Counted from the stretch's first letter, positions 1,247 through 64,000 are shown. The stretch: 64,000 nt of DNA from a bacterium (GCA_037446635.1 JBBIIG010000014.1:16294-80293), one strand, 5' to 3'. The notes: generated by a model from the sequence alone, not told the origin. Numbers and translations are program-made.

Positions 1247-1354
1247 TTGTAATGAAATGGATTTAACTTTCCGAGAGGAGGTGAAAGAGGAGAGCAAGTA
1301 ACCCCTTTAACTCGCTGTCAAAATTATTCATTCACAAAAAACGGGAGGGTTCCA

Positions 1355-1978: not shown

Positions 1979-1996
1979 CTTTTCCATAACTGTGAT

Positions 1997-2029
1997 AACC
2001 CTGACGGGGTTCGCAACCCTGTCAGGGTT
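1997..2029. repeat. Family-E double palindrome, probable terminator of the monohaem cytochrome gene
   Basis: AACCCTGACGGGGTTCGCAACCCTGTCAGGGTT, 19 nt after the stop at 1978. Confidence 0.8.
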
Positions 2030-2058
2030 AAAACCATTGCACAAACTTTAAATTAGTC

Positions 2059-3072: not shown

Positions 3073-3128
3073 GTAAGCGGCATTATTCACAGACGGCAAA
3101 AGGTGAGGACGACATCTACATTGAAGTT

Positions 3129-3172
3129 TATTAATCCAAATGGGAGTAATGGATTATTGGATCGTTGGATCG
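3129..3172. repeat. Family-G units (tattaatccaaatgggagtaatggattattggatcgttggatcg)
   Basis: Same TGGAGTAATGGATTA vocabulary as the other family-G sites. Followed by two hairpins (GCCCGCC...GGCGGGC 3194-3221; CTCAAAGC-GGA-GCTTTGAG 3223-3241). Confidence 0.65.
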
Positions 3173-3280
3173 TAACGCAAACCTCAGGTTTGCCCGCCTG
3201 CCTAAGGCCTCTGGCGGGCAGCTCAAAGCGGAGCTTTGAGTTACATATATAAAATTATCCAAGCTAAAAGGAGCAGAATC

Positions 3281-4012: not shown

Positions 4013-4033
4013 TTTATCGAGAGAATGTGAATC

Positions 4034-4521
4034 ATGAAAAAGCTGTTCTTCTATTTTTTAGCCATTTCTAGTTTATTGTTAGTCTCGTGCAATAGTGACC
4101 AACCGTTGGGCAGCAATGACGGGGCAAATCCGAGTAAGTCGGGTTTCGGGGTCTCCGGACTTTTGTTTGAGAACAACCTGGTGATGTGGGATCGCGAGAA
4201 CCAAGGCAGCCGCAGCGAATTATTTCCACAAATGTATTTCACCCGCGCCGACGCCGCCGACTTTCCCACCTGGGACACATTTCCTTCCAACCAGATGGTT
4301 TCCGGCGGTCCGCCACGTGATGGCATACCTGCGCTGACCAATCCCAGAATCGTATCCTCAACTTCATAAGTAACGCGAATCCATTTCAGATGACTGATAA
4401 CGAGACCAACAGCGTTTGGAACATCAAAGGCGAGGCGATTTCCGGTGCACTCTCCGGCGTGAAGCTGACACAGATTCCCGCATACAATGTCAAATCTCAA
4501 TATCGTCGTTCCGATTGCTGA
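4034..4521 (+). pseudogene. Second DUF3179 gene, internally deleted and truncated
   Basis: The N-terminal lipoprotein part ends ...GGPPRDGIPALTNP then hits a stop at 4369. A different frame (4387-4521) carries QMTDNETNSVWNIKGEAISGALSGVKLTQIPAYN, the D.ET.S.W...G..G..L block of DUF3179. The central ~130 aa, including the CPLC region, is missing. The 3' end overlaps the convergent gene 4497-4907. Confidence 0.7.
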
Positions 4522-27659: not shown

Positions 27660-28910
27660 ATGAAACAGATCGTCTTTTTTTTGATTGTGCTTGGTTGGTT
27701 GGTGTGGGTTGAGGACATCTCGGCGCAAGCCGGCTGGATTTTCAAAACGCCGATGCCCACGGCGCGCGCCGGCATTTGCGCCGCGGTGCTCGACGGCAAA
27801 GTCTATGTGATGGGCGGCCGCAGCAGCAGCGGCCAGGTGCTCGATTTGGTGGAGCGATACGACCCGCAAAACGACCGTTGGGAAAGTTCGCCGCGTTTGC
27901 GGGATGGGCGCGAGAACGCCGCGGCGGTGGTTTATGATGGCACCATCTTTGTGCTCGGCGGCCGCGATCACGAAGGAGAAGTCATAAAGAAGGTAGAATT
28001 TTTTAATCACAATAGAAATGAATGGGAGGGCTTTGATGATATGTTAGAAAAGCGGGAGGGGCTCGGCGCCGTAGTGGTGAATGGTCTTCTGTATGCCGTG
28101 GGCGGTGGCGATGAACACGAAGTGTTGTTGGATGGCGTGGAATTTTTTGATCCAAGCCAGCGGAAATGGATTAAAGCGAATGACTGGCAGCTGATTTTGC
28201 CGGCGGCATCGCTGGTCGCGGTGGCGGTGCGGGATTCCGCCTTCACCATCGGCGGATTTGGGGGCGTGTTGGGACCGCTGAATATTGTGCAGCGGTACTA
28301 CGCCGGCTTGGAAACGGCGGTGCGTGCCTCCCTGCTGATTGGGCGCGGGGGGTCGGCTGTCGTCGCCCGCGGCGACTCCATTTTCGTTTTGGGAGGAAGC
28401 GGATTGTTGGGCACGTTAAATTCCGTTGAGGTGTTCATCCCGAAATTCAATCGCTGGGAAAGCTTCTCATCTCTGCAAACCGCCCGCGAGAACTTCGCCG
28501 CGGTGGCGGTGGATCACACGCTGTTCGTCTTTGGCGGCCGCGGCGCCAACGGCCACGCCCTCAACTCCGTGGAAGCGTATGAGCTCGTGACCGCGGTGGA
28601 AGACGAGCCGCCGATTTTGCCGCTCGGTTTTGCGCTGGAGCAAAACTATCCCAATCCCTTCAATGCTGGCACGAAGATCGTTTTTCGTGTTCCAGCCTCT
28701 AACAGTACGGCGGCGATTCGATTAGAGATTTTTAATGTGCGCGGCGCGCGCGTGGCAACTTTGGTCGATGGGCCGCGGCTGCCAGGCGAGTACGAAGTGT
28801 TTTGGGACGGCGCTGATTTTCAAAAGCGGCCGGTTGCCAGCGGAATTTATGTGTACATATTAGAAATGGGCGGACAACGCATCGCCAAAAAAATGATCCT
28901 GAGCCGATGA
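27660..28910 (+). CDS. Kelch-repeat beta-propeller protein with a T9SS C-terminal sorting domain
   Basis: Repeated GGR..G..L..VE.YDP..N.W units. C-terminal NYPNPFNAGTKIVF...GIYVYILEMGGQRIAKKMILSR. Confidence 0.9.
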   Translation: MKQIVFFLIVLGWLVWVEDISAQAGWIFKTPMPTARAGICAAVLDGKVYVMGGRSSSGQVLDLVERYDPQNDRWESSPRLRDGRENAAAVVYDGTIFVLGGRDHEGEVIKKVEFFNHNRNEWEGFDDMLEKREGLGAVVVNGLLYAVGGGDEHEVLLDGVEFFDPSQRKWIKANDWQLILPAASLVAVAVRDSAFTIGGFGGVLGPLNIVQRYYAGLETAVRASLLIGRGGSAVVARGDSIFVLGGSGLLGTLNSVEVFIPKFNRWESFSSLQTARENFAAVAVDHTLFVFGGRGANGHALNSVEAYELVTAVEDEPPILPLGFALEQNYPNPFNAGTKIVFRVPASNSTAAIRLEIFNVRGARVATLVDGPRLPGEYEVFWDGADFQKRPVASGIYVYILEMGGQRIAKKMILSR

Positions 28911-29927: not shown

Positions 29928-29942
29928 TGGCATCGCCTTTGC
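29928..29942 (+). promoter_or_regulatory. Candidate sigma-54 promoter for the DUF5666-repeat cargo gene
   Basis: TGGCAT-CGCCT-TTGCG with correct spacing, 57 nt upstream of ATG 29999. Confidence 0.6.
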
Positions 29943-29998
29943 GTGATGAACGTCCAAACCAATTCACCCAATTTATTTCAAAAATAGGAGGATTTGTC

Positions 29999-37248: not shown

Positions 37249-37281
37249 GAACCCTGTCAGGGTTTCAAACCCTGACAGGTT
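37249..37281. repeat. Family-E double palindrome (AACCCTGTCAGGGTT / AACCCTGACAGG)
   Basis: GAACCCTGTCAGGGTTTCAAACCCTGACAGGTT. Other copies at 1997-2029 and 56364-56379. Confidence 0.85.
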
Positions 37282-37298
37282 ATGACAGCGGAGGTTAA

Positions 37299-37996: not shown

Positions 37997-39166
37997 GTGC
38001 CAGTTAATCGTACTATTCGAAGTTTTGTTATTCATCTCTTCCTTCTCGTTTTATTTTTTTCTTGCACACAGAATCCCATCCAGGTTGATGTCCGCGTCTC
38101 GCCGGAGCTATCCGAGCTTATTGTGCCGGCGCTGGTGTACAATCAATCTGCCCGCAAACACGTGATCTCGGTTAAAGTGGTAGATCCCCAGGGCGTAGCG
38201 GACATTTCGCAAGTATCGCTCACGATTACCAAAGCCGGCGAGTCCGTTCCGGCGCTGCAAAAAAATCTGGTGGATGACGGAACTCAGGGGGACATCATTC
38301 CCAAGGATGGCGTGTTCGCGGCGCAAATTGATGGCAACTTCGCTGGGGGCGAGGTCGGCGAGTTTCGCGCAGCGGCATCGGCCACCGACTTAAGCGGTAA
38401 CCAGAGTAACACGCTGGAGGCGACCATCACCGTCGCGGCGGGCGCCGAGAATCTGCCGCCGGAAATTAAAAATGTTTCGGCGCCGAGTTCGGTGGCAGTG
38501 GATGTGCCGTCGGATTTTATTGTGCAAGTGGAGATCACCGATCCCAATGGTCTGGAAGACGTGCTTCTCGTGCGCTCGGAATTTTTTCCGCCAGCTCACC
38601 CAACTCCAACAAAAGTTGACACTCTCAACGATGATGGCCTGAATGGCGATATCGAAGCCGGCGACGGGGTTTACACCGCCACGTTTAGCTCAAGCCAATT
38701 TCGGGAAGCAGCGGATTATTTTCTGCGCATTGTGGCGGAAGACCGCGCGGGCGATTTCAGCGCGGCGGCGGTGGCCGGAATCCGCGGCGTATTTTTGAAT
38801 CCACGCGCGCCAGTGATCTCCAATTTAGTGGCGCCCGACACCGTTCGGGTGGACCCCAATCAGGTGGTGCAGATTTTAATGACCATCGACGCCTCCGACC
38901 CGCAGGGTTTGTCGGACATCGATTTCGTGCGCTTCCGCAGCTTCCTGCCCGATGGCCGGGAAGCCACCGACAGCCCGTTTGAAATGGCCGACGACGGCAA
39001 CCGCGCCCGCAGCGGCGATCTGATTGCCGGCGACGGCACCTACAGCATCATCATCAATCTGCCGCCAGGGACCACGCCCGGAAATTTTCGTTTCGTGTTT
39101 GAAGCCAAAGATAAATCGAATTTGTTCAGCAACCAAATCGAACATATTATCACGGTGATTCAGTGA
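37997..39166 (+). CDS. Lipoprotein built from three ~110 aa modules, each ending in a DDGxxGDxxAGDGxY motif
   Basis: Lipobox FFSC. Module motifs: VVDPQGVADISQVSL...VDDGTQGDIIPKDGVFAAQI; ITDPNGLEDVLLV...NDDGLNGDIEAGDGVYTATF; SDPQGLSDIDFV...ADDGNRARSGDLIAGDGTYSIII. The start could be 37970 or 37997. Confidence 0.65.
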   Translation: MPVNRTIRSFVIHLFLLVLFFSCTQNPIQVDVRVSPELSELIVPALVYNQSARKHVISVKVVDPQGVADISQVSLTITKAGESVPALQKNLVDDGTQGDIIPKDGVFAAQIDGNFAGGEVGEFRAAASATDLSGNQSNTLEATITVAAGAENLPPEIKNVSAPSSVAVDVPSDFIVQVEITDPNGLEDVLLVRSEFFPPAHPTPTKVDTLNDDGLNGDIEAGDGVYTATFSSSQFREAADYFLRIVAEDRAGDFSAAAVAGIRGVFLNPRAPVISNLVAPDTVRVDPNQVVQILMTIDASDPQGLSDIDFVRFRSFLPDGREATDSPFEMADDGNRARSGDLIAGDGTYSIIINLPPGTTPGNFRFVFEAKDKSNLFSNQIEHIITVIQ

Positions 39167-40776
39167 AAAATTTATCCGCTCGACAAGGATTTGTTATCCT
39201 CGTCGAACAATTATTTGGGGGATTTAATCCCTTTTCAATGATTCGCGGGAATTGGGACTGCATTGACTGTGTCAATGCTGCTGCAGCGACACAGTCGCCG
39301 CACTCCAAGAGGTTATTTTTTCCGAGACGATTGGTTTTAATAGCTGTTCTTTTGTTAGCGCCCTTTTTTAGCTTCTCCAACTCCTTCTCCCAAATTCTTC
39401 ACAAATACGCTTTCCGTCTCGATGCCCAGCCCAAACCCGGATTGGCCAGCAACACCATCACCGACATTAAAGTTTTCGGCAGCGCAATCTGGTTTGGCAC
39501 CGGCGACGGCCTGAGTCGCACCAAAGATGACGGCCTGTCATTCGAATCCTTTCGGCACGAGCAGGAGATTGGCCGCGGCGGCGTTTCAGGGTTGGCAATT
39601 GGCGACGGCATTATCTGGGTGGCCACGGGGTTTGATTCCACCACTCCGTTGGGCCGTTTTCAAACCGGCGGCGGCCTGGCCTATTCGAAGGATGACGGCC
39701 AGACCTGGGTGTTCGTTCCGCAGCCCGGCCCGACTCCCATCAACAACATTACATTTGATATTGCGCTGCGCGGCGACGAAGTGTGGATCACCAGCTTTGC
39801 CGGCGGCCTGCGCAAATCGGTGGATCTCGGACAGTCGTGGGAGATCGTTTCGCCGGATTCGTTCATTTTCGATCCGGTGGCGCACCTCAACCACCGCGTG
39901 TTTTCGGTGACCGTGGTGGACAGCATTCTTTGGGTGGGCAGCGCCGGCGGCATCAATCGCTCCAACGATGGCGGCATCACCTGGACTAAATTCAGCCATC
40001 AAAATCAAGCGCGTCCCATTTCCGGAAATTTTGTGGTGGCAATTGGGCGGCAGCGTTATGCCAACAAAGACATCATTTGGGCTGCCACGCGCGAGACCAC
40101 CATCGAGTCCGGCGACGAAACCGAATTTCGCGGCGTGTCGTGGAGCGAGGACCAGGGCTTCACCTGGCGCACGGCCTTGGAGGGCGAAACCGTTCACAAT
40201 TTTGCTTTCGATGATTCGGTGGTGTACGCAGCTTCGGATAACGGCCTGTGGAAATCCATTGACGGCGGCGAAACCTGGGCGCTGTTTCCCAACATTGTAG
40301 ATGTCTCGAATGGCCGGCAGATTCTTGCTAATGAAGTTTTTTCGGCCGGCGTCAGCGCGGGGCACACGCTGTGGGTTGGCACACGCAATGGTTTAGCCAA
40401 AACTTCCGATAACGCGCTCACCTGGGAAGTCTTTCAAGTATTTGAACCCACCGGCCGCGACGGCGCGCCGCGCACCTATGCGTATCCCAATCCTTTTTCG
40501 CCCAGCGTTCACAACAATTTGGGCGGAAGAGGACACGTACGCTTTCAGTACAACACCATCAACCCCACGCAGGTTACATTAAAAGTCTATGATTTTGCGA
40601 TGAAGCTGGTGCGAACCGTGGTGGCGGATGCGCCGCGCCCCGGCAGCAGCGACATTTATGAAACCTGGGATGGCACCGATGAAGGCGGCCGGCAGGTGGA
40701 CAACGGCGTCTATTTTTATCGGCTGGAGTTGTCCGGCGACGGCACGTATTGGGGAAAATTGGTTGTTCTGAATTAA
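39163..40776 (+). CDS. BNR/Asp-box beta-propeller protein with a C-terminal T9SS/FlgD-Ig-like sorting domain
   Basis: Six SxDxGxTW boxes (SKDDGQTW, SVDLGQSW, SNDGGITW, SEDQGFTW, SIDGGETW, TSDNALTW). C-terminal YAYPNPFSP...GVYFYRLELSGDGTYWGKLVVLN. The start is uncertain because a hairpin at 39265-39296 lies in the annotated N-terminus, ahead of the signal peptide. Confidence 0.8.
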   Translation: MKNLSARQGFVILVEQLFGGFNPFSMIRGNWDCIDCVNAAAATQSPHSKRLFFPRRLVLIAVLLLAPFFSFSNSFSQILHKYAFRLDAQPKPGLASNTITDIKVFGSAIWFGTGDGLSRTKDDGLSFESFRHEQEIGRGGVSGLAIGDGIIWVATGFDSTTPLGRFQTGGGLAYSKDDGQTWVFVPQPGPTPINNITFDIALRGDEVWITSFAGGLRKSVDLGQSWEIVSPDSFIFDPVAHLNHRVFSVTVVDSILWVGSAGGINRSNDGGITWTKFSHQNQARPISGNFVVAIGRQRYANKDIIWAATRETTIESGDETEFRGVSWSEDQGFTWRTALEGETVHNFAFDDSVVYAASDNGLWKSIDGGETWALFPNIVDVSNGRQILANEVFSAGVSAGHTLWVGTRNGLAKTSDNALTWEVFQVFEPTGRDGAPRTYAYPNPFSPSVHNNLGGRGHVRFQYNTINPTQVTLKVYDFAMKLVRTVVADAPRPGSSDIYETWDGTDEGGRQVDNGVYFYRLELSGDGTYWGKLVVLN

Positions 40777-46951: not shown

Positions 46952-47021
46952 TTTGCAAATTTTTGAAATTAAAGGGTGTTATGCGAGTAATTTAATCACT
47001 TATTTGGGAGGAGAAACCGTA

Positions 47022-47657
47022 ATGAATTTGCTGAAAATGTTCCACGACGGCGGCGGTTTTATGTGGCCGATTTTAGCCTGTCTGATCCTCGGAATCGCAA
47101 TTAGCTTGGAACGATTTTGGACCCTATCAAGAGCTTCAGTTAATACTCGAAAGTTTCTCGCCACCATTAAAAAAGCGCTGCAAGAGGGTGGGGTGAAGGC
47201 GGCGACGGAGGTGTGCACCAACACTCGCGGGCCCGTGGCCTCGATTTTTCACGCCGGGCTGCTGCGCGTTGATCGTGGAATCGAACACGTTGAGAAAGCG
47301 ATCATGAACGCTGGCAGCATTGAAATGGCCTTCCTCGAAAAGGGCCTGGTATGGTTGGCTACCATCGTCAGCGTAGCGCCCATGTTGGGCTTCCTCGGCA
47401 CCGTGTGGGGCATGATCTTAGCGTTCGATCAGATCGCCCTTGCTAACGACATTTCTCCCGCCATCGTGGCCGGTGGTATTTCGGTAGCGCTTTTGACCAC
47501 CCTGTTTGGTCTGGTGGTCGCCATCATCATTCAAACTGCCAACAACTATTTCATCTCTCGTGTTGACAAGCTCATCGTCGATATGGAAGAGAGCTCGGTT
47601 GACTTTGTTGACACGCTCATCGAAATGGAAAAAGAAGGCCGGCTCAAAAAGGCGTAA
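47022..47657 (+). CDS. exbB: MotA/TolQ/ExbB proton-channel protein
   Basis: GGAGGA RBS. MWPILACLILGIAISLERF and ...APMLGFLGTVWGMILAF.... Confidence 0.9.
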   Translation: MNLLKMFHDGGGFMWPILACLILGIAISLERFWTLSRASVNTRKFLATIKKALQEGGVKAATEVCTNTRGPVASIFHAGLLRVDRGIEHVEKAIMNAGSIEMAFLEKGLVWLATIVSVAPMLGFLGTVWGMILAFDQIALANDISPAIVAGGISVALLTTLFGLVVAIIIQTANNYFISRVDKLIVDMEESSVDFVDTLIEMEKEGRLKKA

Positions 47658-48538: not shown

Positions 48539-49177
48539 ATGAAAAAGAATCCAGAGGCGAACTTGAAGCTCAAATACCGTAAAGTATTTGAAGTGAGCTT
48601 GATCATCACGCTGGTGGTGCTGATCGTTTTCTTTCAAATGCTGCGCGCCATCAGCTTGGAGGCCACCGAAGCCAAAACTCCGGAAATTAAGATCGAGGTA
48701 GCAGACATTCCGCCCACCGAGCAGATAAAACGTCCGCCTCCGCCTCCCAAGCCTTCGGTGCCGATTCCCACTGAAAATGAGGACATTCCGGAGGATTTGA
48801 CGATTGAAAGCACCAACCTCGATTTAACCGAAATACCGCCTCCGCCTCCGCCTCCCGAGGACGACGGCGAAGTCAATATTTTTGTGCCGTATGATGAACC
48901 CCCAAGCCCAATCGGAGGCTTTGCCGCTATTCAGCGCGCCTTGAAATATCCGGAAATTGCGCGCAAAGCCGGCATCGAAGGCAAGGTTATCGTGCAGGTG
49001 CTGGTCTCCGAAAAAGGGGAAGTGGTGGATACCAAAGTGATTAAATCCCTGGGACACGGCGGCATGGATGAAGCGGCAGTGAATGCTATTCGCAGCGTTA
49101 AATGGAAACCCGCTTTGCAAAGAGATAAACCCGTCAAAGTTTGGGTGGCTATTCCGGTTATTTTCAAGCTCAAATAA
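48539..49177 (+). CDS. tonB: TonB-family energy transducer
   Basis: N-terminal TM anchor, Pro-rich spacers (RPPPPPKPSVP, PPPPPPPED), and a C-terminal TonB domain (IARKAGIEGKVIVQVLVSEKGEVVDTKVIKSLG...AVNAIRSVKWKPA). Confidence 0.85.
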   Translation: MKKNPEANLKLKYRKVFEVSLIITLVVLIVFFQMLRAISLEATEAKTPEIKIEVADIPPTEQIKRPPPPPKPSVPIPTENEDIPEDLTIESTNLDLTEIPPPPPPPEDDGEVNIFVPYDEPPSPIGGFAAIQRALKYPEIARKAGIEGKVIVQVLVSEKGEVVDTKVIKSLGHGGMDEAAVNAIRSVKWKPALQRDKPVKVWVAIPVIFKLK

Positions 49178-53705: not shown

Positions 53706-54290
53706 CTAAAAACTCGCGCCAGACAAGGCCTGTGAATGAGGATGTGAATCGGCGATGACGGTGACATATTTTATCATCACCGAGTATTTGTTGGCAAGCG
53801 ATTCCACCGGGTTGACGCGAATTCCAAAATTATAAAAAAAGGATTTTTCGTCGCTGTCAAAACAGGCGCGCAGCGGCGCCCTGCTGCAGTCGAACAACTT
53901 GATGGCCAGCAGCGAAAAATCGAATTCAAAATCCAGGGCAAGATCATAACTCGATTTTTGCAGATGCTGCTTGAGCGCGTTTTTGGGCAGGCCCAGCAGG
54001 TTGATATCTTCTTTGGAATAGGGCAGGATATCCAATTTGAGGCGGCTGTCGATAAAACTCACCATTTCAAGTTGAGCGACCACCGTGATGCGCCAGTTCG
54101 GGCGCTTTTCCCGCAGCTTCTCCAAAGCTTTGAGCGCGACGCCAAAATGCTCGACTTTAACCGGCATGAAAATTAAAATTTTCTGCGCTTTAGCCAATCG
54201 TTCCACCACGTCAACCGCGCCTGCTTTTTCAGAAATTCGAAATTTCAATCGCAGCGCCGCGCTGGCAAGTTTAGCGAGAGGAGGAGTCAT
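53706..54290 (-). CDS. Hypothetical protein
   Basis: 194 aa ORF, last gene of the minus-strand cluster 57513->53706. No motif recognised. Confidence 0.5.
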   Translation of the reverse strand: MTPPLAKLASAALRLKFRISEKAGAVDVVERLAKAQKILIFMPVKVEHFGVALKALEKLREKRPNWRITVVAQLEMVSFIDSRLKLDILPYSKEDINLLGLPKNALKQHLQKSSYDLALDFEFDFSLLAIKLFDCSRAPLRACFDSDEKSFFYNFGIRVNPVESLANKYSVMIKYVTVIADSHPHSQALSGASF

Positions 54291-54355: not shown

Positions 54356-56344
54356 TTAAATTTTGAGATCGATTTGCACGCCGAAGCGTCGGTCGCGTTG
54401 GCCTTGAATTTCGTCGGCGCCGCTGCCGATGACGTCGGTATCGTCGCGAAAGGTCTCCGCATATTTCGCCGAGAACCCCATGAACCTGAACTGGTAGTTT
54501 ATAAGTACATACCAACGCGCGCCCTCGCCGAATAAGCTGCGGTTGGTGGCCAAGCCGGGCAGATCGGGCTCGTATTGAAACACCGCGGAGTCGAAGGAGT
54601 CGGTGTCAAAAATGGTTAAACGCGCGGTCAGGGTCAGGGCTTTCGTGGGCTGGAGGCGAACATCCTGGTACATCAAAAAACCCTGCTCATCGGTTTCTGC
54701 GACCGCCGAGTTGAAGCGATTCGTTTTGAACGAAACGAATTCCCAGCGGCTGCGCAACCGCAGCTGCCGGCTGAGATCGTAATCCAATTGCAGCCGCCCC
54801 TGCCGTTTTAGAATCTCAACGAATTCGCGCCGCTCCCGCATTAATTCATCCTCGAACGTTTCAGTTTCTTGTTTTTGATTTTCGCGATAGCGCAGCGTCA
54901 GCCGCAGACGGTTGGAGAATCGCTGCTCAATCTGCGCCAAAAATTCGTTGCCATCGAACGGCAGCGGCTCAAAAAACGTCCGCCACGGATGGGTGAAAAT
55001 ATCGTAGTAGGCGCTGACCGCGGTGCGCTCGCCAATTTTGAAATGAAGGCCGGAATAATACCCGCGCTCGTTTTGGGTGCTGCCGTTGGCGTCGGCGAAG
55101 GCGAAGCCGTGCAGGTTCTGAAAATCTTTTCCGTAATCGCGAAACAGAAACGCCAGTTGGATTTTTTTGAAGTCGAGCAGGGCGCCGGCCAGCAGCGCGC
55201 GGCCGCCGTTTTTTGATCCCGCTGCTTCTCCAAAAAGATTGGCGCTGGGAATTCGCCAATCCCAGTGAAATCCGGCCACGGCGTTTTTTCTGCCGCGAAA
55301 TGCGAAGCGCTGCCGGACAAGATCGGGATCGTTGATGGTTTTGTCGAATTTTGAAAAGTAAAAGCTGCCGCCAACCGTAAGCTGCAACGGCAGTTGCAAT
55401 CGCAGCGCCGCGCCGGCCAGCGATTCCGTGAGCGCGTCCTTTTTGCTGAGCTCGTTTTCGTTGCGGTGGAAACCAGTGGCGAAAAGTCCGGAGACTTCAT
55501 TTTCGGAAGTGAGAGTAGCATCCAACTTGGCGCGCGACGCAAAAATGGTGGCGGCGAAATGTTTCAAAGTCACATGCGCGACCCCGCCGTGCAGCGCGGC
55601 GTTTTCATCTACTGTGCTGTAGCCGCGAAATTCACGGCCGCGTTTTTTGATGGGGAAAATCGCGTCGGCGCTTTTGGAAAAGCCGTACGGCCCCCACAGC
55701 GTCAGCCCCTGCCCGATTTGCAGCAGATAATTTCCAACCAGAAAAGAGAAGTTTGGGTGGGCGTCCACGGCGACGTAGTAGAGCCGCAGATCGTCCCAGC
55801 GCCGTTCGCCGCTGTCTTTCTCCAATAAAAATCCGCCGGAAATTTTTTCAGCGATTTGATATTGAATGCGGTGATAAATTTTTTGCGGCGAGTAGAGATA
55901 ATCGCCCTCCTCGAAGCCAACCGGCCGATCGACGCGATCGCTCAGCCGGCTGCGCAGGTTGAGGCGAATGCTTTTTGGGGCGGGCCGCGCCGGCTTTTTT
56001 ACAAACACCAGCTCGCGCAAATATTCGTACGTTTCGGCATTCACCCCGTCAACGCGCAGTAATTCTTCGACGCGCTTAAATTCGCCGCGCCGCTGGCGGT
56101 AGCGCAAAATGTTGTCGCGCAGAACCGGGGTGAGTCCGGGAATGATCTCCAATTCCTCCAGCGTCGCCGAGTTGAGATCGAGGGGATATTCTTTCAAGTT
56201 CAAAAGAATTTCGTAAAGCTCGGATTGTTCCGAGCTTTCTTCCTGGCTTTCCAGCAGTTTTTCCGCCATGGTTTCCTGGGCGAAAAGGGGGGCAGAAAGG
56301 CAAAGATAAATTACGAAGAAAGATGTTGTAGATAGGTTTTTCAT
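54356..56344 (-). CDS. Secreted protein: N-terminal ComEA-like helix-hairpin-helix domain plus a ~540 aa beta-rich (barrel-like) domain
   Basis: Signal peptide. LDLNSATLEELEIIPGLTPVLRDNILRYRQRRGEFKRVEELLRVDGVNAETYEYL. The remainder alternates beta-strand patterns and ends ...RRFGVQIDLKI. Confidence 0.75.
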   Translation of the reverse strand: MKNLSTTSFFVIYLCLSAPLFAQETMAEKLLESQEESSEQSELYEILLNLKEYPLDLNSATLEELEIIPGLTPVLRDNILRYRQRRGEFKRVEELLRVDGVNAETYEYLRELVFVKKPARPAPKSIRLNLRSRLSDRVDRPVGFEEGDYLYSPQKIYHRIQYQIAEKISGGFLLEKDSGERRWDDLRLYYVAVDAHPNFSFLVGNYLLQIGQGLTLWGPYGFSKSADAIFPIKKRGREFRGYSTVDENAALHGGVAHVTLKHFAATIFASRAKLDATLTSENEVSGLFATGFHRNENELSKKDALTESLAGAALRLQLPLQLTVGGSFYFSKFDKTINDPDLVRQRFAFRGRKNAVAGFHWDWRIPSANLFGEAAGSKNGGRALLAGALLDFKKIQLAFLFRDYGKDFQNLHGFAFADANGSTQNERGYYSGLHFKIGERTAVSAYYDIFTHPWRTFFEPLPFDGNEFLAQIEQRFSNRLRLTLRYRENQKQETETFEDELMRERREFVEILKRQGRLQLDYDLSRQLRLRSRWEFVSFKTNRFNSAVAETDEQGFLMYQDVRLQPTKALTLTARLTIFDTDSFDSAVFQYEPDLPGLATNRSLFGEGARWYVLINYQFRFMGFSAKYAETFRDDTDVIGSGADEIQGQRDRRFGVQIDLKI

Positions 56345-56363
56345 TAGCGTTTTCGAAAGTGTT

Positions 56364-56379
56364 AAACCCTGTCAGGGTT
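56364..56379. repeat. Family-E palindrome (AAACCCTGTCAGGGTT) in the 44-nt gap between the two HhH genes
   Basis: Same core as 1997-2029 and 37249-37281. Confidence 0.75.
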
Positions 56380-56388
56380 GTAATTTTT

Positions 56389-57513
56389 TTAATTGCTTTC
56401 TAAAGTTACAAATGGTTTGATTTTCTCCAGTTTGTTTTTTCCGATTCCCGGGACGTTGAGTAAATCGTCAATTTTTTGGAAGGGGCCGTTTTGCTCGCGA
56501 AATTCCAAAATGGCGCGCGCCAAACTCTCGCCGATGCCCGGCAGTTTTTTGAGATCATCAATCCTGGCGGAATTGATGTTAATTTTGCCGGGCGGAGATT
56601 CCGGATCCGGCGCCGGTTCGATTTTAGTCGAATCGATAGGCAGGATTTCGGGAGAAACCTCCACCACCGGTTTGGGTTCGGGCGGCGGTTGTTTTCCAAA
56701 ATGAATGGCCAGCGAAGTTTGATGAGTGAGCCCGAGATCGTTGTGGGTGAAGAAGGCGTAATCAATGGCGACGCGCTGGATGGCGACGCCGAATCCCGCG
56801 GAGAAGCGGCTGGGGTGATTGGCCGCGCCGGCGCGAATGGCTAAATTTGCCAGCGGCTTGAATTCGCAGCCGAAACGCGCCTCTGCGGCAAAGCGCACGT
56901 CTTTGAAAATTTCAAAATTCAAAATAAGATTGTTGAGGGGATGAACCGAAACGCCACTAGAAAAAATTTGCGGCGCATGTTCGTCGGTTTGTCCAATGGT
57001 GGGACGGTTGACGTTTTTGGCGACGAATCCAAGATTGATCTCAGACGAGAGTGGTACTAAAATTCCAAGATCGAGTCCTACTGCGCCGCCGGAGCCGTAG
57101 CCCTCGATGTGAACGGTTTGATAGCGCAGGCCCACGCCGTAAAAAAGCTTGCGCTGATAGTGGTGGCTGAACGTTAGGCTGAGCGCCTGCTCGCGGTAGA
57201 GGCCGTTGCCAAAGGTGAGCGCACCCAATCCCACGCGCCGATTCCAAATCGGGAAACTGAGGGCGAGAGTTCCAAAGTTGATCTCGGAAAGCCCGAACGG
57301 CTTTTGATAAAAAATCGCCAGCTCGGTTCCAACCAACTGACCCAACCCGCCGACGTTGAGAAAGACGGCGTCGGCGGTGTTGGCCAGCGCCACATAGGTG
57401 GCGCCCATTCCCAGCGACCGAGCGCCCACCGGCCACTCTTCCGCGCCCACTGGCTCTGGAACGTACAATAGTGCAACCACCGCGAAGAAGAAAAAAATCT
57501 TGCGTTGAGTCAT
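56389..57513 (-). CDS. PorV/PorQ-like beta-barrel fused via a Pro-rich linker to a C-terminal ComEA-like HhH DNA-binding domain
   Basis: Signal peptide. VGARSLGMGATYVALANTADAVFLNVGGLGQL plus barrel strands. Linker QPPPEPKPVVEVSPE...PAPDPESPPG. Then ININSARIDDLKKLPGIGESLARAILEFREQNGPFQKIDDLLNVPGIGKNKLEKIKPFV. Confidence 0.8.
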   Translation of the reverse strand: MTQRKIFFFFAVVALLYVPEPVGAEEWPVGARSLGMGATYVALANTADAVFLNVGGLGQLVGTELAIFYQKPFGLSEINFGTLALSFPIWNRRVGLGALTFGNGLYREQALSLTFSHHYQRKLFYGVGLRYQTVHIEGYGSGGAVGLDLGILVPLSSEINLGFVAKNVNRPTIGQTDEHAPQIFSSGVSVHPLNNLILNFEIFKDVRFAAEARFGCEFKPLANLAIRAGAANHPSRFSAGFGVAIQRVAIDYAFFTHNDLGLTHQTSLAIHFGKQPPPEPKPVVEVSPEILPIDSTKIEPAPDPESPPGKININSARIDDLKKLPGIGESLARAILEFREQNGPFQKIDDLLNVPGIGKNKLEKIKPFVTLESN

Positions 57514-57614: not shown

Positions 57615-58505
57615 GTGGCAACCACGAAACTCTCTTATTTGCGCTTCCAAATGCTTCCCCTCCTTTCCTCGATAAGTTTAGCAATTGCGGTTCTGCTGCC
57701 TTCACGGGCAGCGGCGCAGGCGGTGAAGGCGAACGTGAACGTTATCATCGATAAGCTGCCTATTGAAAAACAGGAAAAAATGAGAAACTTCCACCGCGTC
57801 GTCAAAGACTACATCGAAAACGCCAATTGGTTTTTGGATGACGACGCCGTGCCCATCGAAGTGACCCTGCAAATGTTTCTCACCGATATTCCCTCCAACA
57901 TCGAAGATCGCTATCTCTGCGAGCTACTGGTCTCAAGCGCGGACGTGCAGTACTTCGATAAGCGCTTCCGTTTTCCGTTTCAACCGGGAACGCAATTGGT
58001 TTACAGCGAACAAGCGATTGACCCGCTTACCGGCGTGATCGATTTTTACCTGAACCTGGTTTTAGGCAATGAGCTGGATAAATACAGCGGCTTTGGGGGA
58101 GACGTTTACTACAAACGAGCGCAAAGCATTGCGGCGCTGGGCAAGTTCGTGCGCACGGAATTTGTGCGCGGCTGGCCCGAGCGCGAACAACTGATTAAAC
58201 GGGTGTTCGAGGAGCCATTTATCACCTTCCGCAAAATGAAGGATTTCTATTTTTATGGGCTGTACGTCCGCGAAAAAAATCTCGCCGACGCCCGCAAAAA
58301 TGTGAAGATTGCTTTGGACATGCTCGAAACTGTCATCGAGAAGAAAGGCGATCTGGATGAGCCGCGACAGTTTTTAAACGCGCACTACTTGGAGTTTATC
58401 GATCTTTTCAAAGACTACGAAAACAAAAAAGAGATTTTCAAAAAGTTGATCAAGTTAGATTCGGCTCACAGAGAATTGTATGAAGCGCACGTTGGGGAGT
58501 CGTGA
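57615..58505 (+). CDS. DUF4835 family protein (PorD-like T9SS-associated protein)
   Basis: Signal peptide. VKANVNVIIDKLPIEKQEKMRNFHRVVKDYIENANW...PIEVTLQMFL...DPLTGVIDFYLNLVLGNELDKYSGFGGDVYYKRAQSIA follows the DUF4835 pattern as I recall it. Confidence 0.7.
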   Translation: MATTKLSYLRFQMLPLLSSISLAIAVLLPSRAAAQAVKANVNVIIDKLPIEKQEKMRNFHRVVKDYIENANWFLDDDAVPIEVTLQMFLTDIPSNIEDRYLCELLVSSADVQYFDKRFRFPFQPGTQLVYSEQAIDPLTGVIDFYLNLVLGNELDKYSGFGGDVYYKRAQSIAALGKFVRTEFVRGWPEREQLIKRVFEEPFITFRKMKDFYFYGLYVREKNLADARKNVKIALDMLETVIEKKGDLDEPRQFLNAHYLEFIDLFKDYENKKEIFKKLIKLDSAHRELYEAHVGES

Positions 58506-59136: not shown

Positions 59137-62100
59137 TTACCGCATCACCACCAACTTCTCCACCACCTCCACCTGCTCGTCGCCGCGGCGGGCGATGAGT
59201 TTGTATAAATACACGCCGTTCGCCAGCGCGTCGCCGTCGAAGTCGCGGGCGTTCCAGTGAAATTGATTGAAGCCGACGCGCGCCGGTAGAAAGTCCGCTT
59301 CGTGGATCAGACGGCCCGCGACGGTGTAAATTTTCAAGCGCACTTCATCGGCGTCCTGGGAGAGAATGTAGGTGAACGCGGTTTCGTTTTGAAAGGGATT
59401 GGGATAGTTCAGCACCTCGGTGATCTGGAAACGCGAGCTCACCTGAAACGCCTGCTCGAAATAATTGAGGTTGCCAGACGGGTCGCGGGCAAACACTTCG
59501 ATTTGATGATCGCCCTCGGAAAGGTTTGCGGTGAACAGGACCAGCGCTTTCAAATCGCGCTGCTCGGGGTTGGACTGCGGCAGAAATTGCGCCTGGCTCG
59601 CGCCGCTGCCGTAACTCACCTTTTGCTGATCGAGATAGACCACCACCTGCGAGGTGTCGGTGAACTGCGCCGGTCCGCGGTCGCGGATTTCCACCACCAC
59701 TTGCGGCGCGGCGGAAACAAAATCGCCGGCGGCCACCGTGCGGCCATCCATCTGTACGCGGATGACCGGCGCCAGCGTGTCGCGCACCACCCATAAACTG
59801 AAATCAGCGGCGTTGTTGGTCTCATCCAATTCCGTGATGCGATCATCCGCATCGAGTCGCACCGTCAGTTCGATTTTTCCGCTCAAACCACTAGTGGAAA
59901 TCAACGCCGGGTATTCGCGGATTTCATCCACCTGCAATCCGCCGACTTTCATTTTCTGCACTTCAGTTGCGCCCCGGAACATACTCACGAAGAAACTATC
60001 AGCGGCGGCGAGGCCAAAGTTGGCCGCGCCGATCGTGACCTGCGCTTCCGCGCCCACTTCGACTGTATCCTGCTGCACGTGAATCTCACTTTTGACGGTG
60101 GCGAGATCCGGCGGCGGAGAAAAATCCACTGACCATGACTGCAGCCGCGGCGTCGTCAATCCATTCGCGCTGGTGAGCGCGGCTGCCAATTGGATTTGTG
60201 GATAAGCCTGCGCCGGGATTTGCGAGAGGTCAATTTCGGCGGCGGAAAAGTTGGAGATCAACGTATCCAATGCGCTGCTGCCGCGCGGTTTTCCGATCAC
60301 CGAAAATATGATTTGATTTTGCTGATCTGATTCAAATGCGAGCCGCGCCGATTTCCACTCCAGCGCCGGCCCAATGAGCGGCGAAATCATGCGCCCGTTT
60401 TTCGCAAAACGATACAGCGTATCCGCGATGGCGATGGCGCCCTCCCCAACTTTTTTCCATTCTTCCGGCACCGTTCCAATGGCCGCACCCTTGCGCCCGA
60501 TGATCGCCCAGGCGTCGCGAAAGCGCACCTGCCGCGTGAATTGGCTGCCGATGCTTTCCAGCGCCAAATAGGCGCTTTCGGTCATGGAGACGCTGCCGTC
60601 ATCGCGAATGGCGGCGAGCACGATTCTGCCCTCTGGCAGCGCGTTGATGAACTGCGCCAGCGCCTCGGCGTTGGCGGTCGCGCCGTAGGTGTCGAAGCTG
60701 GCGCGATCCAGCAGCGCGCCGTCAGTCTCATCGAATACCGCGAGATTGTGGCCGCGCCTGTTGAGACTGACGTGCTCGTCGTTGCGCCACAGCCGCGCAA
60801 AGTTGCCGTCGCTGAACCCCGCCGATTCCGCCAGAAATGAAAGCTGGTTTTGTCGCAGCACCGCAAAGCGCGGCGTCACGCTAACGTTCTCCAAAAAATT
60901 GTTTTCAAATTGTTCGGCGCGCTGCTGCCGCCATTGCCCCGACGTTTGCGGCGAATAGGTGAACGATGCCGTCGCCCACGGCCCAAATTGTTCGCCGTCG
61001 AAGGTGCGGACGCGCCAGTAGTAAACGCCGGCCTGCGAAAGGTTCGGCTGCCAACGCGTGGTCAATCTCCCTTCGTCAATGGGCGGCGAGGCCTGGCGCA
61101 GCGGGCTGTCGAACGCCGCGCTGGTGTCGATTTCAAAAAAATAAACCAATCCCGCGATTTGAATTTTCGAATTGTTGGCGACCAGTTCCGGATTCGCGTT
61201 TTGCACCACGCCAAAATTCAGCGGCTTGATCAAAGTTAAGTCCGATGAGAAAACGGTAACCGTTTGTTCGGCAAAATTGTTGTTTTTGTCTGTTTCCGAA
61301 ATGCGATTTTGCGGATCGATTTCCACTTGAATGCGATACGCTCCGGGTTCATCCGGGAGACGCCACGACACCGTCACCGAATCGCGAAAGCCGGTTGGCG
61401 GGCGGATGAGCGCAGCGATCGGTGTCGAGTTGTTTTCGAAATCCAAAATCGAAATTTGCCCGGCCACGCTGTCAACCGGCTGCAGTCCGAAATTGCGAAT
61501 GACGGCGGAGATGGCCGCCGTGGAATCGGTGGTGAGCAGCAACTCGGGGGCGACGGTGATGTCCTCGTTTTGAATGCTCAACTCCGGTTGTGTGGGAATG
61601 TTCAACGCCAGCGCTGGGTCGCCGATGAGGATGTACTGGTCGATGACAAATTTGCTGCGCGGCTGGCCGCCGAGCCGCTGCCACAGTTGATACTTCGCGG
61701 AAGTGGTCGCCGCGCCCACGCTGCGCAAGGTGTCTTTGGTCACCGCGCGAAACAAACCATCGAGCAGAAAATAATCCTGAGTAATGTACCCAAAGCCCGC
61801 CGAGCCCCAGTATGCCGCTGCGCCGTTGGGGTGCAGCACAAACTCTTCGCTGAGACTGTTCAGCACGGGTTCGGCGAAGCGGGCGGAGTGGCAGGACATG
61901 CCGGTGATGAACGGGAACACCTCGCGGTTTTGCCAGTCGTCCGGGTGGCCGATGTCGATGTCCCACACCTGGCTGCCGGCGTGGCCGATGAAATTAACCC
62001 AGAGAACGCCATCGTGAATTTTCTCCGAAGCGGTACGTTTAAAATTCAGGGTGATGGCCTCATTGGTGGTTTTGTTGTACGGGATGGCGAGGCCGCTGAA

Positions 62101-64000
62101 GGGCGCCGGCGCGACGTGGTCGTTGACGAGTCGGGTGCCCTGCGAAAGAAAAATAGCTTGCTCGGTGGCGTTGATGCCGCCATTGGCAAAGGCAATTTCT
62201 TTGTTCCACGCGCCGAAGGGCAAGCGCTCGTACGCCATGATTTTGTCGATGACGATGGCCGCCTGCTCCGCGGTTTCGACCGGAATGCGCCCGACGAACA
62301 GATCCGGCAGCACATCGTCCGGGCCGTCGAGCAGGGCGTACCAGTTGTCGGCGACGAGGATGCCGTAGGAAGGAACGTAATTGGTTTTCACCGCGCCCGC
62401 CGATAGTTTTTTCGGATCCCACGAAGCGTCGCCGAGCAGAACCAAATAGGTGGGCGCCGGCTTTTCCCAAAACTCAAAGGCGTAACTCAAAAACGATTTG
62501 ATGGCTTCGGGCGCAATGATGCCGAAATTGAATTCGTCATAAATATCTTGCACATCGACGACCGCTGTCCGGAAGCCATTCCGATCGCGGCGGTAGTCTG
62601 CCAGCCTCTGCGCTTCATCCAAAAAATTTTTGTGGGTGATGATGATGTAATCCGCGGCGCTGGCGGTTGAATGCAGATCGCTATTTTTTTCTTTTTCAAT
62701 GCGGCTGATTTTTTTGAGGCCGGATTTCGACGCGGCGAAATAAAATGTCGCCGCGCTGGTGTCCGTGAACCCAGCCGAGTAGCCCAGCGCCGACTCGCCC
62801 CGCAGCGTGTCGCTGACTGCGGCCGGTCCGCTCAATCTCCTCGAAAGAACTTCTTTAGCCGAGCCCACCACCGCGCCCTTGCGGCCGACGAACGCCCAAC
62901 TATCGCGGAACGCAACTTGCCGAATGAGGCCGCTGCCAGCGGACTCATAAGCTTGATACACCGCTTCGTTCAAGTTGGTGGCGCCTTCGTCGCAAATGCC
63001 GGCCAGCACGATTTGACCCGCAGGCAGGGAATTCAAATAGGCCGCCAGTTCATCGGCGGCGGCCGGCGCGCCGAAGGGATCGAAGCGGCGAATTTCCGAG
63101 GCCCCGGTTTGGGGATCGATGGTCATGATGTGATGGCCGCGGCTGCGGAATTCCTGCACCTCAAAATGGGCGATGAGCTTCACAAAGTTGCCGTCGTTGA
63201 AGCCGGCGGATTCCACTTGAAAAAAAGAGGCGCGGTCGATTAGCGGTTGCCACCGCCTGCCTTTTAGAGGATCGAAAATGGTGATCTGTGAATCCGAAAA
63301 ATTGTGCAGCAAATAATTTTTGATGACGCGGCCGGGGTTGTCGGCTTTGAATTTGAAATGACTTTGCGCCGCGGCCGGCGTTCGTGGGTAGATGACGTCC
63401 ACCCAATCGAGATAGATTTGATTCACCAGCGCGCCGCTGCCGCCGACGAGATGCAGGTCGAAACGATTCTGGCCGTTGACGAAAAGCGACGTCGGCAGAA
63501 TTAGATTCCACAGCAGCTCTTCGCGATCGTCAAAGAAATTTTCGCCGACGAGTTGATTATTAATAGTGAGCCGGACGTGGTGATCCGGATTCACCGGATC
63601 TTGGGTCGTTCCCTGCAGCCGCAGTTTGAGCGTGCAATTTTCCACGGCGTAGTGCAGGCCACTTAAATTGAAACTGAAAATGTCGTGTTCGTTTTCAAAA
63701 ATGTAGCGGCCAATCCAGCCTTCATCCGGGTCGATTTCGCTGGAGCTGTTGGAGCGATGAAAGATAACTTCGCGCTCGAGATGCAGGGTTTCCCAATAAA
63801 ATGGGTCGGGCTGGTTTTGTGAAATTCCGGATGGAATCAATTGGTAGCGCGGCCCGGGGTCGCCATCGTCCGTGAGAAAATAGACATTGGTGTCGGTGTA
63901 AAAATCGTAGTAGCGATCGCTTGCCTGCGCAGGCAGGCGGCCGCGATGCCAGTCGGCGTAAAAGTAAATGGTGTCCAGCGGAGAAAATGTGACATTCTGC
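59137..64000 (-). CDS. Giant C25 (gingipain-type) cysteine peptidase, PorU-like, with two ILEI/FAM3-like domains, CARDB-like domains and a T9SS/FlgD-Ig C-terminal domain; 5' end outside the window
   Basis: The frame stays open from 63840 to the window edge (...YYDFYTDTNVYFLTDDGDPGPRYQLIPSG). C25 core: ADYIIITHKNFLDEAQRLADYRR...YLVLLGDASWDP...LPDLFVGRIPV. Catalytic NFIGHAGSQVWD (His ~61981) and ITGMSCHSARF (Cys 61891-61893). C-terminal LNYPNPFQNETAFTY...GVYLYKLIARRGDEQVEVVEKLVVMR. Confidence 0.9.
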   Translation of the reverse strand, partial: QNVTFSPLDTIYFYADWHRGRLPAQASDRYYDFYTDTNVYFLTDDGDPGPRYQLIPSGISQNQPDPFYWETLHLEREVIFHRSNSSSEIDPDEGWIGRYIFENEHDIFSFNLSGLHYAVENCTLKLRLQGTTQDPVNPDHHVRLTINNQLVGENFFDDREELLWNLILPTSLFVNGQNRFDLHLVGGSGALVNQIYLDWVDVIYPRTPAAAQSHFKFKADNPGRVIKNYLLHNFSDSQITIFDPLKGRRWQPLIDRASFFQVESAGFNDGNFVKLIAHFEVQEFRSRGHHIMTIDPQTGASEIRRFDPFGAPAAADELAAYLNSLPAGQIVLAGICDEGATNLNEAVYQAYESAGSGLIRQVAFRDSWAFVGRKGAVVGSAKEVLSRRLSGPAAVSDTLRGESALGYSAGFTDTSAATFYFAASKSGLKKISRIEKEKNSDLHSTASAADYIIITHKNFLDEAQRLADYRRDRNGFRTAVVDVQDIYDEFNFGIIAPEAIKSFLSYAFEFWEKPAPTYLVLLGDASWDPKKLSAGAVKTNYVPSYGILVADNWYALLDGPDDVLPDLFVGRIPVETAEQAAIVIDKIMAYERLPFGAWNKEIAFANGGINATEQAIFLSQGTRLVNDHVAPAPFSGLAIPYNKTTNEAITLNFKRTASEKIHDGVLWVNFIGHAGSQVWDIDIGHPDDWQNREVFPFITGMSCHSARFAEPVLNSLSEEFVLHPNGAAAYWGSAGFGYITQDYFLLDGLFRAVTKDTLRSVGAATTSAKYQLWQRLGGQPRSKFVIDQYILIGDPALALNIPTQPELSIQNEDITVAPELLLTTDSTAAISAVIRNFGLQPVDSVAGQISILDFENNSTPIAALIRPPTGFRDSVTVSWRLPDEPGAYRIQVEIDPQNRISETDKNNNFAEQTVTVFSSDLTLIKPLNFGVVQNANPELVANNSKIQIAGLVYFFEIDTSAAFDSPLRQASPPIDEGRLTTRWQPNLSQAGVYYWRVRTFDGEQFGPWATASFTYSPQTSGQWRQQRAEQFENNFLENVSVTPRFAVLRQNQLSFLAESAGFSDGNFARLWRNDEHVSLNRRGHNLAVFDETDGALLDRASFDTYGATANAEALAQFINALPEGRIVLAAIRDDGSVSMTESAYLALESIGSQFTRQVRFRDAWAIIGRKGAAIGTVPEEWKKVGEGAIAIADTLYRFAKNGRMISPLIGPALEWKSARLAFESDQQNQIIFSVIGKPRGSSALDTLISNFSAAEIDLSQIPAQAYPQIQLAAALTSANGLTTPRLQSWSVDFSPPPDLATVKSEIHVQQDTVEVGAEAQVTIGAANFGLAAADSFFVSMFRGATEVQKMKVGGLQVDEIREYPALISTSGLSGKIELTVRLDADDRITELDETNNAADFSLWVVRDTLAPVIRVQMDGRTVAAGDFVSAAPQVVVEIRDRGPAQFTDTSQVVVYLDQQKVSYGSGASQAQFLPQSNPEQRDLKALVLFTANLSEGDHQIEVFARDPSGNLNYFEQAFQVSSRFQITEVLNYPNPFQNETAFTYILSQDADEVRLKIYTVAGRLIHEADFLPARVGFNQFHWNARDFDGDALANGVYLYKLIARRGDEQVEVVEKLVVMR

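Follow-up and report, generated by a model that had tools for sequence, protein, structure and literature searches.

Two adjacent genes, here called A and B, in a 64,000-nucleotide (nt) stretch of bacterial DNA (GCA_037446635.1 JBBIIG010000014.1:16294-80293; the window, hereafter, is this whole stretch) encode outer-membrane beta-barrels joined to ComEA-type helix-hairpin-helix (HhH) modules, and we propose, with slightly less than even confidence, that they form a two-barrel outer-membrane complex of an envelope DNA-uptake pathway, serving competence or DNA scavenging, in bacteria of the Fibrobacteres-Chlorobi-Bacteroidetes (FCB) group. We describe here the gene structures, domain identities and predicted folds of the two proteins, the pairing of their genes, and the adjacency of B to the gene of the inner-membrane DNA importer ComEC in Sphingobacteriaceae. 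The architecture is a variant of the known ComEA principle within a large uncharacterised family of outer-membrane proteins, and the adjacencies to comEC and to a gene for PorD, a type IX secretion system (T9SS) accessory protein, are the two functional leads that it offers.

Both open reading frames (ORFs) run exactly as a first-pass annotation, made from the sequence of this DNA, had drawn them: side by side on the minus strand, 44 nt apart, encoding 374 and 662 amino acids (aa; Table 1). The opposite arrangements described there, barrel before HhH in A and HhH before barrel in B, were borne out by Pfam HHH_3 (PF12836) matches at aa 310-370 of A (E=7e-23, 80.9 bits against a cutoff of 27) and at aa 55-111 of B (E=5e-14, 52.6 bits against the same 27-bit cutoff), as well as by the barrels present in AlphaFold2 models of both proteins, which were built from 42-sequence alignments. 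The NCBI gene call for B comprises 637 aa and starts at an internal Met, with loss of the signal peptide; the 662-aa ORF, 96% of which is covered by P0121, agrees with the N-termini of its homologues.

The model of A (predicted local distance difference test score, pLDDT, 87.5) consists of a helix at aa 2-15 with a stretch of low pLDDT behind it, a hatch-like segment (aa 31-59), short and helical, that holds the conserved motif GARSLxMG, 14 strands spanning aa 63-272, a disordered linker, and a compact HhH domain. The final strand ends in ...LAIHF, a sequence resembling a beta-signal; the barrel-only homologues of A stop a few residues past a final strand of the ...IHF type, which fits a beta-signal at that position. 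Foldseek placed the model nearest to Flavobacterium johnsoniae PorV of the T9SS translocon (8gl6_F/6h3i_F; E=4e-10, TM 0.59), followed by FadL and TodX. The earlier assignment of A to the T9SS-shuttle barrels of the PorV/PorQ type therefore holds at the level of the fold, but not at that of the family: the N-terminal 270 residues match the family models (NF033709, NF033711, NF052325) below threshold in every case (PorV_fam 52.4 bits, cutoff 90; PorQ 36.4 bits, cutoff 220; PorV2 23 bits, cutoff 325), and the long surface loops of PorV, for which we looked in the model, are absent, one inter-strand connection being of 16 residues and the rest of 2-6 in a barrel of only ~210 residues.

B also models as an outer-membrane barrel, as had been proposed (pLDDT 86, predicted TM score 0.81), with helices at aa 26-110 that form the HhH module and then ~26 long strands over aa 126-661, whose long conserved loops hold the motifs EKDSGE, GQGLxLW, SVDEN and GFHRN. 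This barrel of ~540 residues has no Pfam or NCBIfam match and no sequence relative in the PDB, and B has no close solved structure. Neither Plug nor TonB_dep_Rec matched B at E<=0.1, and its structural matches to TonB-dependent transporters are partial (TM 0.3-0.4).

Both HhH modules are ComEA-type by profile, in agreement with the first reading of the sequence, but only that of A has canonical hairpins. In comparisons of the A and B profiles with solved structures, ComEA was matched at E=5e-22 by A and at 5e-13 by B, and PsbU at ~1e-3 and 0.1, respectively; GspK and PsbU give weak matches to the modules. Because its profile is far closer to ComEA than to PsbU or GspK, the B module appears to be ComEA-derived, albeit degenerate. 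A PsbU-type identity of this module was considered and rejected, ComEA being favoured by 12 orders of magnitude. TIGR00426, which describes the ComEA HhH region, scores 66.7 bits on A, over its cutoff of 53.1, and 32.9 bits on B, under it; the full-length ComEA model TIGR01259 (comE) scores below its cutoff of 152.35 on both (66.6 bits for A, 44 bits for B), the match being confined to the HhH region. Aligned to Geobacillus ComEA (8dss), the A module sets LPGIG/VPGIG over PGIG/TGIG, with both G-I-G hairpins intact; both hairpins are kept in 29 of 30 A-type fusions, whose modules have a mean net charge of +2.7. The A module probably binds DNA, to judge from these residues.

In outer-membrane proteins the termini and the short turns are periplasmic and the long loops external. 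Long loops alternate with turns of 2-5 residues in the models of both A and B, the tight turns lie on the side of the termini, and the strand counts are even; under this rule, the C-terminal HhH module of A and the N-terminal one of B would both be in the periplasm. The succession of barrel, Pro-rich hinge and periplasmic domain would give A the layout of OmpA.

The pair is widely conserved. We analysed, using hidden Markov models built from the window families, 80 species-level genome loci of KSB1, Calditrichota and Ignavibacteriota, 80 Bacteroidota-type metagenome loci and several named genomes; contexts were counted over 81 loci of the former set and 84 of the latter; the underlying scan took in at least 203 genomes and was biased towards KSB1/Ignavibacteriota-like sequences. 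Where upstream DNA was available, the gene directly upstream of B encodes an A-like barrel in 74/74 KSB1/Calditrichota/Ignavibacteriota loci and in 56/67 Bacteroidota-type loci. In an unbiased clustering of the ORFs of 165 loci A was the sole near-universal neighbour of B (144 loci), ahead of DUF4835/PorD (72 loci, none of them Bacteroidota-type, and divergent from A in each) and of families restricted to single lineages. The median distance from the stop of A to the start of B is 20 nt in the first set and -1 nt in the second, which suggests that the two genes are translationally coupled. An exhaustive profile search at E<=1e-30 returned ~6,150 representatives of 50%-identity clusters for the B family; the top 150 matches all have the same full-length architecture, and the homologues, of 650-720 aa, reach Chitinophaga, Ferruginibacter and Pedobacter. 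The combination of HhH and large barrel is thus common, with thousands of members, and what is rare is an HhH carried by the small barrel.

Proteins with the complete barrel-linker-HhH order of A fall into ~58 clusters at 90% identity, whose sources are KSB1, Caldithrix and unclassified metagenome-assembled genomes. The barrel-only homologues of A are many, ~285 aa long and mainly from Ignavibacteria. Among the 80 genome loci, 11-13 carry the HhH on A, all of KSB1/Caldithrix type, and it occurs in none of the Ignavibacteriota or Bacteroidota loci. By these counts, A next to B is the ancestral arrangement, and the ComEA module on A is a lineage-specific addition that can be dispensed with. In one KSB1-type locus (L005, 5715-5947) an in-frame stop closes the barrel ORF, and behind it come a shortened linker and what is left of the HhH module, with one hairpin (...IEINSASVDELITLPGIGAKKVEIIRDKITFG*); some lineages are thus losing the module. 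That the fusion might be an artefact of assembly, joining two genes, was raised at the outset and is ruled out by the many independent contigs from which the ~58 clusters come and by the 11-13 species genomes that share the barrel-linker-HhH ORF.

Three observations on the relatives of A and B are recorded here in their own right. (i) The complete genome of Ignavibacterium album (CP003418) encodes a barrel-only A homologue of 282 aa (L002, 8001-8849) that is annotated 'Helix-hairpin-helix DNA-binding class 1'; the real HhH protein is the product of the next gene (672 aa), and the annotation on the A homologue seems displaced or inherited. (ii) Some Pedobacter genomes have a second B paralogue, namely those of Pedobacter africanus (L167) and Pedobacter sp. 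G11 (P0274/P0278); that of P. africanus lies beside FecR and a SusC/SusD-like pair and is preceded by apparent A-gene fragments of 58 and 174 aa. (iii) In Chitinophaga (L001) and in the Bacteroidota locus L085, too, B comes before a SusC/SusD pair.

The genomic evidence that ties the pair to DNA comes from the Bacteroidota. In 23 of the 84 Bacteroidota-type loci, a comEC gene of the same strand as B adjoins its 3' end or overlaps it; this gene was found first 5 nt downstream of a B homologue (L083), and Pfam confirmed its product as DUF4131 plus Competence. In the clustering of the 165 loci, all of its 23 occurrences fell in the Bacteroidota set, where it was the first neighbour with a clear functional link. 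The named relatives of the ComEC-linked B proteins are Pedobacter species. In the cultured Pedobacter agri a MerR gene is followed in turn by those of A (266 aa), B (676 aa) and ComEC (695 aa), with 11 nt of overlap and a gap of 4 nt. With identities among the ComEC-linked B proteins as low as 34%, and 13 clusters of them at 60%, the linkage is old and maintained. These A-B-comEC operons lend independent support to a role in DNA uptake, and with it to one part of the DNA-binding apparatus first suggested for this locus; the other part, a capture of extracellular DNA at the surface, is disfavoured by the predicted topology. A gene for DprA lies ~5 kb from B in a second lineage, represented by seven Bacteroidota loci (L085, at 1008-4084, L126, L140, L157-159 and L163), and this proximity is weaker evidence than the linkage to ComEC. 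In the same seven loci, a TPR/PD40/OmpA protein with a PorE-like domain set is encoded together with DprA ~3-5 kb upstream of A-B, on the opposite strand.

Under the DNA-uptake reading, B would be a large barrel of ~26 strands with a ComEA-derived domain hanging into the periplasm, and A a compact 14-strand, FadL/PorV-like partner, probably co-translated and putatively in physical complex with it. In the lineage of the present organism, A would have gained a canonical ComEA module on a flexible Pro-rich linker of ~35 residues, which would hold a DNA-binding ratchet on the periplasmic side of the outer membrane in the manner of OmpA. Incoming DNA might then be caught by the A module and handed to ComEC, for which B would be a candidate conduit or docking site.

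Several observations weigh against this reading: (i) at 45% identity the ComEC-linked B proteins form a single group, Sphingobacteriaceae, so that the linkage may trace to one ancestral event. (ii) Within 6 kb of the pair, the 81 KSB1/Calditrichota/Ignavibacteriota loci have neither comEC nor dprA, and Pfam scans of the 64-kb window found no comEC, dprA or pilus genes. (iii) The conserved neighbour in those lineages is a T9SS accessory gene: 72 of the 81 loci have a divergent DUF4835/PorD gene next to A, at ~70-100 nt. (iv) The HhH on A is a dispensable, lineage-specific accessory, absent from most lineages and decaying in L005. (v) Not one of 42 B-family members has Gly-x-Gly in either hairpin of its module, and the mean net charge is about -2; the Bacteroidota members lack any glycine in the first hairpin. 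Because the second glycine of both hairpins is lost and the module is net acidic, DNA binding by the B HhH is doubtful, although the second module of the eukaryotic DNA nuclease EEPD1 has similar hairpins (RGLS/DGIN). (vi) A transposon screen in Riemerella reported no A- or B-like gene (PMC8459023). (vii) A different outer-membrane DNA importer has already been proposed for Bacteroidota, made of the TonB-dependent barrel DdbC/RA0C_RS04915 and its lid DdbD/RA0C_RS04920 (PMC8459023, PMC12478041).

Since such a DdbCD-type importer exists, B need not be a DNA pore, and could serve ComEC as a docking or hand-over platform instead. A more ambitious form of the proposal, which we regard as unlikely, makes A-B an outer-membrane translocon for DNA in FCB bacteria, independent of pili, not of secretin type and built on the SprA-PorV principle of a large barrel with a PorV-like partner, in which B would be a pore that docks ComEC via its degenerate HhH and A its gate; in KSB1 and Calditrichota, A would add to this an outer-membrane-tethered ComEA ratchet. 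If that were true, T9SS protein export and DNA import would be connected, in evolution or physically, and the conserved PorD neighbour would be the mark of this connection.

PorD also suggests another explanation, to which we give a low probability: that the pair is a T9SS accessory, A pairing with B as PorV does with the SprA/Sov translocon, and that the HhH modules are protein adaptors, perhaps to PorD or SprE, with no DNA involved. The divergent PorD-like gene in 72 of 81 loci, an arrangement also present in the complete genome of I. album, speaks in its favour. It is joined by the PorV fold of A with its sub-threshold PorV_fam and PorQ matches, by the restriction of the family, as seen so far, to FCB phyla that carry a T9SS, by the wealth of cargo genes with C-terminal sorting domains in the window, and by the degenerate, acidic HhH of B, which fits a function other than DNA binding. 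PorD (PGN_1783, Fjoh_3466) is a periplasmic T9SS accessory that binds PorW/SprE, with a mild phenotype or none (PMC8754138, PMC10994853), and could thus have another partner. However, A falls under every PorV, PorQ and PorV2 cutoff, and its connections of at most 16 residues contrast with the long surface loops through which PorV binds cargo (PMC10994853). No other T9SS neighbour is conserved, the PorU-like gene of the window having no homologue in the 81 other loci, and the 84 Bacteroidota-type loci are all without PorD; the functional neighbour that recurs there is ComEC. A ComEA module that is canonical and positively charged, as that of A is, would be hard to account for if no DNA were involved, and interactome and cryo-electron microscopy studies of the T9SS reported no such proteins, though the species studied may lack the pair (PMC10994853, PMC8754138).

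We consider it equally improbable that A and B are a general porin or structural complex, in which the HhH modules would do no more than tether or plug in the periplasm, the adjacency to ComEC or PorD being lineage synteny without functional coupling. The neighbours do vary with lineage (PorD in some; ComEC, DprA or SusC/SusD in others), the second B paralogue of some Pedobacter lies beside FecR/SusC/SusD, and HhH folds serve roles unrelated to DNA in PsbU and GspK. Yet the overlapping or 4-nt B-comEC junctions are kept down to 34% identity of B, which argues for selection on co-expression, the PorD adjacency spans three phyla, and purifying selection has evidently preserved the DNA-contacting hairpins of the A module in ~58 clusters. 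Finally, surface-exposed HhH modules that capture extracellular DNA for anchoring in a biofilm matrix are very improbable, for although the A module has the sequence of a canonical DNA binder and the organism encodes many T9SS-exported surface proteins, the even strand counts and the short turns on the side of the termini put both predicted modules in the periplasm, the order of barrel, Pro-rich linker and domain in A mirrors OmpA, whose C-terminal domain is periplasmic, and the genomic link is to an inner-membrane importer.

Table 1. Features of the A-B locus and its flanks (positions counted from the first nucleotide of the window)
Feature	Position	Strand	Extent	Description and basis
Gene A	56389-57513	minus	374 aa	Signal peptide, 14-strand FadL/PorV-like outer-membrane barrel, Pro-rich linker, ComEA-type HhH; ORF, Pfam/NCBIfam, AlphaFold2, Foldseek
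Gene A signal peptide, MTQRKIFFFFAVVALLYVPEPVGA	57442-57513	minus	aa 1-24	Read from the sequence; putative cleavage site
Gene A barrel domain	56689-57438	minus	aa 26-275	Hatch-like N-terminal segment and 14 strands; AlphaFold2, conservation
Gene A Pro-rich linker	56587-56688	minus	aa 276-309	Disordered; 32% Pro over aa 273-309; pLDDT <50 over aa 287-305
Gene A HhH module	56404-56586	minus	aa 310-370	Canonical ComEA type; hairpins LPGIG, VPGIG; predicted periplasmic
Intergenic palindrome, AACCCTGTCAGGGTT	56365-56379			In the 44-nt gap between A and B
Gene B	54356-56344	minus	662 aa	Signal peptide, degenerate ComEA-derived HhH (by profile), ~26-strand outer-membrane barrel
Gene B signal peptide, ...SAPLFA/QE	56279-56344	minus	aa 1-22	Read from the sequence; AQxE site kept in homologue consensus
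Gene B HhH module	56012-56182	minus	aa 55-111	ComEA fold; hairpins PGLT and DGVN; predicted periplasmic
Gene B large beta-barrel	54362-55969	minus	aa 126-661	~26 strands; AlphaFold2, conservation
194-aa gene	53706-54290	minus	194 aa	Directly downstream of B; no signal peptide; weak DUF6913 match (21.6 bits, cutoff 27)
DUF4835/PorD-like gene	57615-58505	plus		Divergent, 101 nt from the start of A
Peptidase_C25/PorU-like gene	59137-63840	minus	1567 aa	Two ILEI (interleukin-like epithelial-mesenchymal transition inducer) domains, CARDB domains, T9SS C-terminal sorting domain

The PorD and PorU-like genes reported next to the pair are both present, but only the former is a conserved neighbour. The PorD-like protein scores 97.6 bits on Pfam DUF4835 (cutoff 25) and 90.6 bits on NCBIfam T9SS_PorD (NF052317), against a cutoff of 170; the PorU-like protein is below the cutoffs of both PorU (288 against 420 bits) and PorU2 (276 against 450 bits). 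When the 81 other loci were searched by phmmer with this 1567-aa protein, none had a homologue, and the gene was therefore rejected as part of the system. On the other side, a homologue of the 194-aa gene immediately follows B in 14-15 KSB1-type loci, making it a possible third member of the operon in KSB1-type genomes only. The hairpin noted between A and B is there, and it belongs, as had been said, to a family; in the window, the 15-mer palindrome AACCCTGWCAGGGTT occupies three intergenic sites (1997-2029, 37250-37282 and 56365-56379), two of them as tandem pairs, with 9 strand-matches in the window against 0.06 expected by chance. It looks like a small family of intergenic repeats of this genome, similar to repetitive extragenic palindromic elements, and is not specific to this locus.

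Elsewhere in the window, four genes (20986-22647, 27660-28910, 29939-32740 and 39163-40776) encode T9SS C-terminal sorting domains, and among their products are a Kelch-repeat protein, one with nine DUF5666 repeats and one that is BNR/sortilin-like; an active repertoire of T9SS cargo is clearly present in this organism. A plus-strand gene at 17496-20360 encodes a 954-aa CarboxypepD_reg, Plug and TonB-dependent barrel protein with the domain make-up of RA0C_RS04915/DdbC, and ExbB and TonB genes lie at 46953-47657 and 48539-49177. No Pfam match to secretins, pilins or type II secretion system (T2SS) components was obtained on A, B or the scanned window ORFs of at least 150 aa.

To our knowledge, Bacteroidota and their relatives are without the pilus and secretin machinery of other Gram-negative bacteria, and the passage of DNA across their outer membrane is an open problem for which the TonB-dependent candidate has so far been the sole proposal (PMC8459023, PMC12478041). 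In Porphyromonas gingivalis, where no involvement of T2SS, type IV secretion system or pilus was reported, the outer-membrane route of DNA "remains unclear" (PMC11532111). A-B would be a second candidate, and a much more widely spread one, from Pedobacter and Chitinophaga to Ignavibacteriota, Calditrichota and KSB1. The hypothesis is directly testable, since cultured Pedobacter species carry the A-B-comEC operon. It would also bring into view the thousands of members of the B family, for whose barrel Pfam has no model and which bear generic "helix-hairpin-helix" annotations only, and would give PorD, so puzzlingly mild in phenotype, a possible second context. The system was called uncharacterised when first noticed, and we agree: in the literature searched we found no description of a ComEA module on an outer-membrane barrel, of the A-B pair or of its linkage to ComEC, and nothing relevant that connects HhH or ComEA to outer-membrane barrels, to the T9SS or to competence in Pedobacter.

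The pair nevertheless shares features with several known systems, from each of which it differs: (i) the ComEA proteins known so far are either soluble periplasmic proteins or held by a single helix in the inner membrane, and they often carry an SLBB or oligomerisation domain. Like those of V. cholerae, Geobacillus (8dss) and P. gingivalis (PGN_0421), A and B carry a non-cytoplasmic HHH_3/ComEA-type module, and in the Pedobacter operon they are encoded together with ComEC; unlike them, the modules are fused to integral outer-membrane beta-barrels, and that of B is acidic and has lost hairpin glycines. (ii) With PorV and PorQ, A has in common a 14-strand barrel with a hatch-like N-terminal segment and an adjacent gene for a PorD-like T9SS accessory, but it scores below their cutoffs, has minimal loops and a predicted periplasmic domain at its C-terminus, and its partner is a barrel of 26 strands and not SprA or PorU. 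(iii) OmpA consists of an 8-strand barrel and a peptidoglycan-binding OmpA_C domain, this C-terminal domain being periplasmic; A has the same order of parts and probably the same topology, with 14 strands in place of 8 and an HhH module in place of OmpA_C. (iv) PsbU and GspK resemble the B module as non-cytoplasmic HhH folds, exapted in their case for protein-protein contacts, although the profile of B is far closer to ComEA (5e-13) than to PsbU (0.1). (v) The proposed logic of an outer-membrane passage, a periplasmic ComEA-type binder and an inner-membrane ComEC is that of the PilQ secretin with its ComEA ratchet; in the window, however, there is no secretin, pilus or T2SS-like gene, and the candidate conduit, B, is a barrel of monomeric type. 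(vi) The proposed Riemerella and Bacteroides importers are, like the role we propose for A-B, outer-membrane barrel systems of the Bacteroidota lineage tied to DNA uptake and transformation. Transformation of Riemerella requires the TonB-dependent barrel RA0C_RS04915, the DUF5689 protein RA0C_RS04920 and the HhH protein RA0C_RS02645 (PMC8459023), and the homologues of the first two in Bacteroides, DdbC and DdbD, import DNA-derived material (PMC12478041). We did not equate RA0C_RS02645 (HhH at aa 236-301) with an A-type fusion, its description giving three HhH domains and a periplasmic location (PMC8459023). DdbC/DdbD and their Riemerella counterparts are of unrelated architecture and combine a Plug and a TonB-dependent barrel with a surface lipoprotein lid, the DNA-binding DUF5689 protein, whereas B has neither Plug nor TonB-box and carries instead a predicted periplasmic HhH. 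DdbCD and A-B may represent alternative or sequential routes.

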